From Escherichia phage Eeyore: a stretch of 45,057 bases of DNA. The stretch is from sequence record PP925821.1; one strand, given 5' to 3'. Position 1 is the stretch's first letter; the number at the start of each line of letters is the position of its first letter. This document shows, piece after piece, positions 31,709-32,140 of this stretch. Position numbers and translations under genes: made by a program. A model generated the notes under the pieces. The model worked only from the letters and a program-made list of their open reading frames with translations, did not search any database and was not told the DNA's origin.

Positions 31709-32140
31709 ATGTTTCTGAAAAAAGAGAAGTTCACCTGGCAAACAGAATCCCTGACCATCTTCGAGCTGTCGGCGCTGCAGCGTATTGAGTACATCACGTT
31801 TATGGCCGCAGAGGAAAAGGCCGTCAGCGCTGACAGCGACGGCATCAGCGATCAGGAAATGACGGCCAGGCTGATAGGCTCAAATATTCGCTGCGGTGCG
31901 CGTTTGATCGCGATGTCTTTGTGGCATAACGATCCGGCTGGCACGGATGTGGAAACGCTTTATCAGCAGGTGCTTAGCGGCTGGCCGCCAGAGGCGATCG
32001 GTAAAGCAGAAATGGAAATAAAGCTGCTCTCCGGCATGCTCGTTCCGGTTGAGGGTGACAACGCTGCCGATCCGGATGCCTCAGCGGAGGCCGAAAGCGC
32101 TGAACCCGTTACGGCGGAAAAGCCCTTGCCAGCGAGCTGA
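31709..32140 (+). CDS. Tail assembly chaperone G
   Basis: 143 aa between major tail and tape measure; acidic C-terminus; SD AAGGAAGGA. Confidence 0.8.
   Translation: MFLKKEKFTWQTESLTIFELSALQRIEYITFMAAEEKAVSADSDGISDQEMTARLIGSNIRCGARLIAMSLWHNDPAGTDVETLYQQVLSGWPPEAIGKAEMEIKLLSGMLVPVEGDNAADPDASAEAESAEPVTAEKPLPAS

Follow-up and report, generated by a model that had tools for sequence, protein, structure and literature searches.

The tail genes G and T of phage lambda carry the experimentally proven prototype of the G-T frameshift. On its slippery sequence, G_GGA_AAG, translation stays in the zero frame at a level of ~96%, and this low-level -1 shift sets the G:GT ratio at ~30:1 (PMC3296357; PMC5009743). 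Less regular signals are on record as well: a relaxed X_XX such as G_GA is accepted in slippery heptamers, shifts on NNA_AAG hexamers have been documented (PMC5009743), and the PRFect 'twofour' motif is listed for phage chaperone genes (PMC10274946). Here we report on the G-T locus of Escherichia phage Eeyore (PP925821.1), studied in a window of 45,057 nt, the whole stretch of DNA analysed. Its slip site, G_GAA_AAG, is already known, being marked in public records of phi80, LLS and N15. In record FN582354 (phi80), G and T are joined as the CDS 'gpG-T', and a misc_feature described as 'slippery sequence for -1 translational frameshift' has coordinates that map exactly to 32116-32122. In PQ299149 (phage LLS) the label on the heptamer reads 'minus-one programmed translational frameshift site GGAAAAG', and a joined G-T CDS is annotated as well, and AF064539 (N15) annotates its own G_GAA_AAG as a slippery sequence. 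Our finding is a correct re-discovery of this annotated frameshift site and adds nothing new to it.

Its practical value lies in annotation. Near-identical phages are annotated inconsistently, with the fusion in FN582354 and PQ299149 and a stand-alone T in other records: in phi80 (JX871397 / NC_021190) and Flotzy (PP925827), T is a separate 90-aa CDS that begins at an ATG, with no join. A stand-alone T of this kind would leave the best-conserved T residues untranslated, and frameshift finders limited to X_XXY_YYZ will miss the majority heptamer of the G-T family.

The closest relatives of the locus, phi80 (gp14/gp15), LLS (genes 11/12) and Flotzy, share 95-99.9% DNA identity with it, together with the gene order and the position of GGAAAAG; they differ from Eeyore in essentially nothing, save that some records omit the G-T join. 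The G and T proteins are homologous to those of lambda at ~50% identity, and in both phages G-T lies between V and H, the slip falls at homologous codons and the A-site Lys codon AAG re-pairs as AAA. The P-site codon differs: GGA (Gly) moves to GGG in lambda with a G.U at the wobble position, whereas in Eeyore GAA (Glu) moves to GGA with a G.U at the middle position, and the lambda site fits the strict X_XXY_YYZ rule while that of Eeyore does not. N15 (gp14/gp15), HK225, Gifsy-2, mEp460 and PSTCR8lys have G_GAA_AAG at the homologous position, as in Eeyore, but their proteins are more diverged (34-56% identity) and their G tails after the slip are 0 to 5 codons long.

Two further systems resemble the site in part. 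In Bacillus subtilis cdd (A_CGA_AAG) and in IS1222 (G_CGA_AAG) the A-site Lys codon likewise moves from AAG to AAA, behind a codon that ends in A and makes perfect P-site re-pairing impossible (PMC5009743); these sites have no first-position P-site requirement comparable to the invariant G of the Eeyore family, and IS1222 relies on stimulators. The actinophage signal GGGGGAA is also a -1 shift in a tail chaperone gene, for which re-pairing of tRNA-Glu from GAA to GGA through G:U has been discussed (PMC10274946), but there GAA is the second (3') slipping codon, the hosts differ and the proteins are unrelated. Our literature search for 'GGAAAAG' or 'GAA AAG' together with frameshift returned nothing phage-relevant, and the literature searched gave no value for the shift efficiency of G_GAA_AAG.

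Gene order and the slip site

We assign the 45,057-nt window to a phi80-like siphophage or prophage because its G-T DNA is 99.9% identical to that of Escherichia phage Flotzy and 95% identical to that of phi80. The G-T pair is placed between a tail tube gene of the lambda V type, directly 5' of G, and a tape measure gene of the lambda H type (Table 1). The identity of G and T was settled by Pfam and by homology at the DNA level: residues 1-124 of G match PF06894 Phage_TAC_2 (lambda gpG; E=2.2e-28), PF06223 Phage_tail_T is matched in the -1 frame (E=1.5e-13), and the phi80 and LLS records name G a tail assembly chaperone or minor tail protein G. G is preceded by the Shine-Dalgarno sequence AAGGA and ends at TGA 32138-32140; the tape measure gene starts at ATG 32447 behind AGGAGG at 32433-32438. 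The end of the T frame and the start of the tape measure gene share 17 nt (32447-32463), so that termination of G-T falls inside the H start region. Elsewhere in the window lies a 764-aa open reading frame at 26988-29282 with a TTG start. By eye, we take its N-terminal half to resemble a ClpP/S49-type prohead protease and its C-terminal half to be capsid-like; the protease and the major capsid protein may be fused here, or the TTG start may be spurious.

Table 1. Features of the G-T region of phage Eeyore; positions are those of the window.
Feature	Position	Strand	Basis
Major tail tube gene, lambda V type, C-terminal Ig-like domain	30955..31698	+	Phage_TTP_12 E=7.6e-68, Big_2
Gene G, tail assembly chaperone, 143 aa, zero frame	31709..32140	+	ORF list, Pfam
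TGA in the -1 frame, 5' limit of the G/T overlap	32101..32103	+	sequence reading
G/T overlap, zero and -1 frames both open	32104..32140	+	sequence reading
Slippery heptamer G_GAA_AAG	32116..32122	+	register, conservation, annotation in phi80, LLS, N15
Predicted T segment read in the -1 frame 3' of the slip	32122..32463	+	translation, Pfam PF06223, fusion alignment
Predicted outer helix, 5' arm (GCCAGCGAGC)	32128..32137	+	fold comparison
Predicted GC-rich core hairpin (TGGCGCGC...GCGCGCCA)	32156..32191	+	fold of 100 nt
ATG taken as 'T start' in JX871397 and Flotzy	32191..32193	+	database records
Predicted outer helix, 3' arm (GCTGGCTGGA)	32193..32202	+	fold comparison
Tape measure gene, lambda H type	32447..35584	+	Pfam TMP_2, Tape_meas_lam_C

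Any shift into T must fall at or after 32104, because the -1 frame is closed by the TGA just before it. From 32104 the -1 frame is open to its stop codon at 32461-32463, and the overlap measures 34 nt ahead of the G stop codon, or 37 nt with the stop included. The earlier note on this DNA had given the same opening of 34 nt, and its start at 32104 is confirmed. The 90 codons for which the note had the T frame continue hold when counted from ATG 32191, but there are 119 sense codons from 32104 and 113 after the slip.

The zero frame across the site reads ACG GCG GAA AAG CCC TTG CCA GCG AGC TGA, which places the heptamer in the correct register, with GGA AAA G as its reading in the -1 frame. The overlap (32104-32140) contains no strict X_XXY_YYZ heptamer and no other slippery motif; GGAAAAG had rightly been singled out as the only plausible slip site there, and as one that is not strict. 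It fails the canonical rule at position 3, which is A and not G, while A_AAG (heptamer positions 4-7) satisfies the rule. An in-register A_AAG, a P-site codon ending in A and preserved first-position re-pairing, the marks of the relaxed class, are all found in G_GAA_AAG, and GG-AAAA fits the name 'twofour' if this is read literally as two identical bases followed by four. A ribosome slipping here would read GCC (32122-32124) as its first -1 codon and continue for 113 codons to the stop, and the predicted G-T fusion is a protein of 251 aa in which ...PVTAEK is joined to ALASELKF....

The string itself carries little information: GGAAAAG occurs 11 times in the 45,057 nt against 7.4 +/- 2.5 copies expected, and alone is no more than chance. 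What is above chance is the combination of register, place in the G/T overlap and conservation. A second in-register copy lies inside G at 31813-31819 (GAG GAA AAG, residues E-E-K), and its presence means that the string alone is no mark of a functional site. A -1 slip at this copy would end after four codons (GGC CGT CAG CGC TGA), and the copy is not conserved, phi80 having EER there. If GGAAAAG were shifty by itself, a few percent of the G made would be lost at the copy at 31813-31819.

Conservation of the heptamer among relatives

The phi80-like set comprised 84 loci, 80 from IMG/VR contigs and 4 from GenBank phages, and GGAAAAG is invariant in all 84, while the bases flanking it vary. At homologous codons, G_GAA_AAG is present in N15, HK225, Klebsiella phage Kp4865-4, Gifsy-2, mEp460 and Providencia phage PSTCR8lys, and G_GGA_AAG in lambda, phage 21 and Stx phages. 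The 63 loci in species-representative bacterial genomes divide into GGAAAAG (40), GGGAAAG (20), G_GCA_AAA (2) and G_GGA_AAA (1), the last three of these loci being L152, L154 and L156. Most of the 20 GGGAAAG loci are identical lambda copies in assemblies of unrelated organisms. A group of G-T loci (L113-L125, L133 and L148-L150) matches lambda in its 56% identity to the query and in its slip-region codons, and lies on short contigs, several with names that give a coverage near 1; the assemblies carry the labels Neobacillus, Oceanobacillus, Kitasatospora, Leeuwenhoekiella, Shewanella, Pseudomonas, Paenibacillus and Enterococcus, among others. The loci of this group are almost certainly lambda DNA contamination of the assemblies.

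GGAAAAG accounts for 44 of the 50 unique contexts of the wider family. The description of the site as non-canonical in the earlier note is therefore sound against the strict X_XXY_YYZ rule but not within the G-T family, where GGAAAAG is the majority form and GGGAAAG the minority. Position 1 of the heptamer is G in all 50 contexts. It closes a codon that itself varies, as the codon before the P-site codon may be GCG, CCG, CTG, GTG, ACG, TTG or ATG (seven codons for six amino acids), whereas codons -2 to -4 have no fixed third base. Ribosomes in the -1 frame do not translate this G, so that its constancy speaks for selection at the nucleotide level. A later, independent scan of IMG/VR returned exceptions at 2 of 120 loci, AGAAAAG (L202) and AGGAAAG (L203), so the position-1 rule is not absolute. 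The same scan contained a subgroup of 11 loci with A_AAA_AAG at the homologous slip position (e.g. L178, L183, L185, L221, L228 and L237). The census may serve as a rule for relaxed bacterial heptamers, with GGAAAAG as the majority form and G at position 1 whatever the codon.

The length of the overlap in relatives narrows the region further. It is shortened to 16-25 nt, reaching 16 nt in L155 and L157, and the G stop codon lies directly 3' of AAG in PSTCR8lys, L153 and L155. Only the heptamer and some few bases 5' of it are common to all of these overlaps. Collinearity with lambda and N15 extends through the junction in the alignment of the predicted fusions, in which Lys138 does not vary and is preceded by Glu (GAA) or Gly (GGA), and the slip site falls on the G_GGA_AAG of lambda residue by residue.

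Proposed frameshift and alternative explanations

A programmed -1 ribosomal frameshift at G_GAA_AAG, yielding G and G-T from one message, is very probably the correct reading of this locus. The earlier note had proposed the same event, and the Pfam families, the alignment with lambda, the conservation of the heptamer and the annotation of phi80, LLS and N15 support it. We infer the G-T fusion protein, its abundance and the details at the tRNA level, the last of these from established rules of -1 frameshifting; our search of the literature found no experimental detection of the fusion in Eeyore or phi80. In the model that we propose, most ribosomes would translate G and stop, while a few percent would slip back by one base on the heptamer, the P site occupied by GAA and the A site by AAG, and would continue in the T frame to 32463 to make the fusion. 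The tRNA-Lys (anticodon UUU) would re-pair perfectly from AAG to AAA, and the perfect A-site re-pairing described in the earlier note agrees with the pairing that we infer for this tRNA. The tRNA-Glu (anticodon UUC) would move from GAA to GGA, forming G:C, G.U and A:U at positions 1, 2 and 3. After the shift, the G at heptamer position 1 would have to find its partner in C36 of the P-site tRNA. Homology with lambda suggests that the G part binds the tape measure protein while the T part recruits the tail tube protein, and a low ratio of G-T to G would be what matters for tail assembly.

It is improbable, in our estimate, that the A-site tRNA-Lys slips alone at A_AAG (or GAA_AAG), which would reduce the signal to 4-6 nt with no heptamer. 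Such a slip has precedent, as no tetramer is more shift-prone in E. coli than A_AAG and a single tRNA is known to slip at NNA_AAG in B. subtilis cdd and IS1222 (PMC5009743; PMC4066793), and the middle-position G.U demanded of tRNA-Glu is weak. It nevertheless fails to account for a position-1 G that persists through six different preceding amino acids and beside free third positions. Coding cannot explain a base that the -1 frame leaves untranslated, and invariance is expected only if the P-site tRNA pairs with this G after the shift, C36 being present in the Glu, Gly and Ala tRNAs. The invariant G thus favours a two-tRNA heptamer with P-site re-pairing over a bare A_AAG slip. Less room is left for a shift elsewhere in 32104-32137 or for slippage of RNA polymerase on the run of four A's, either of which we regard as extremely improbable. 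The overlap does offer 11 zero-frame codons, but it holds no other conserved or slippery motif, the bases on either side of the heptamer vary among relatives, and the 16-25 nt overlaps of the relatives end right after AAG. Slippage during transcription requires ~7 or more consecutive A/T and was rejected here because the A run, at only 4 nt, is too short.

The two-tRNA shift has also to be weighed against a T protein made on its own from ATG 32191, with MLAGMTSSELGDWH as its N-terminal sequence and no frameshift, which the earlier note had named as the outcome that would count against a fusion. An ATG-initiated open reading frame of 90 aa does exist, it is annotated as T in some GenBank records (JX871397, Flotzy), and the Pfam Phage_tail_T model starts near that Met. 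The 20 nt upstream of this ATG, however, contain no Shine-Dalgarno sequence (no GGAG, GAGG or AGGA), unlike the clear AAGGA of G and AGGAGG of H, and a stable hairpin is predicted whose 3' base contains the ATG. From 32104 up to 32191 the T frame is free of ATG, GTG and TTG, and the stretch from the heptamer to the ATG also lacks a Shine-Dalgarno sequence. The best-conserved residues of the T frame (E143, F146, A151-R152-E153, R156 and D158-W159-R160) are encoded 5' of the ATG, with the conserved motif ALASEL...AREFGRPDW lying between it and the heptamer, and would go untranslated; in lambda, T is made only as the G-T fusion (PMC5009743). ATG 32191 is probably not a real start, and an independent T is very unlikely.

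A predicted RNA structure downstream of the heptamer

Sharma et al. (PMC4066793), who covered X_XXZ_ZZN heptamers only, found that without a stimulator these are barely shifty in E. coli (< ~0.5%). G_GAA_AAG alone may accordingly not explain a shift at the level of a few percent, and a stimulator is plausible at the G-T site. An upstream element of the Shine-Dalgarno type, ~10 nt 5' of the heptamer, was considered and rejected: GAACCCGTTACGGC holds no GGAGG-like motif, and the bases of this region vary among relatives. On the downstream side, a predicted outer helix begins to pair 5-6 nt 3' of the heptamer and encloses a GC-rich hairpin that overlies the codons for L-A-R-E-F-G-R-P-D-W-R-A (LAREFGRPDWRA). 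The structure predicted at 32128-32202 may stimulate the frameshift, or it may be a by-product of conservation in the AREFGRPDWRAMLAG codons. A more elaborate proposal, in which this region forms a conserved bipartite RNA stimulator and both slipping tRNAs, tRNA-Glu and tRNA-Lys, carry mnm5s2U34, so that the G:GT ratio in phi80-type phages is doubly sensitive to host tRNA thiolation, is possible but rather doubtful. The downstream structure is the only element here able to change the view of the lambda G-T signal; if the stimulator is real, the G-T frameshift of the lambda, N15 and phi80 groups would be more than a bare slippery sequence.

The 100 nt after the heptamer have a predicted fold of -52.2 kcal/mol (z=-5.4 against dinucleotide shuffles). 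Against synonymous recodings the Eeyore sequence gives z=-2.4 (p ~0.012). N15 and Kp4865-4 give similar results, lambda reaches p=0.086, and several other clades show no signal. In the minimum-energy fold of the 100 nt, 32129-32133 pairs with 32217-32221; this pairing is broken without compensation in close relatives, L045 and L052 among them, and was dropped. The helix between 32128-32137 and 32193-32202 was preferred because it is common to N15 and lambda, and the predicted architecture of a helix with an enclosed hairpin is shared by phi80-, N15- and lambda-type sequences. RNAalifold, applied to 60 sequences from the whole family, gave no consensus structure (-1.4 kcal/mol), so the downstream structure is at best subfamily-specific. 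Scanned against Rfam, 31600-32600 yielded nothing meaningful.

The peptides alone already account for ~6.5 of the 10 pairs of the outer helix. The Eeyore helix, interrupted by an internal G.G mismatch, forms only 8 of them and does not outperform synonymous recodings (p=0.21), while the N15-like helix has all 10 (p ~0.003 against synonymous recodings). Covariation was assessed in 75 unique sequences with an MLAG-type 3' arm, among which 88% of the cells of the outer helix pair, against <=42% with a slid partner. Column 84 (32199) covaries perfectly with column 16 (32131), the pair being A-U in 43 of the sequences and G-C in the other 32; it combines a first-position change between Ser and Gly with a synonymous change between GCT and GCC, 68 nt apart. 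On a rough tree both columns change twice, and together, whereas other synonymous sites change 7-14 times.
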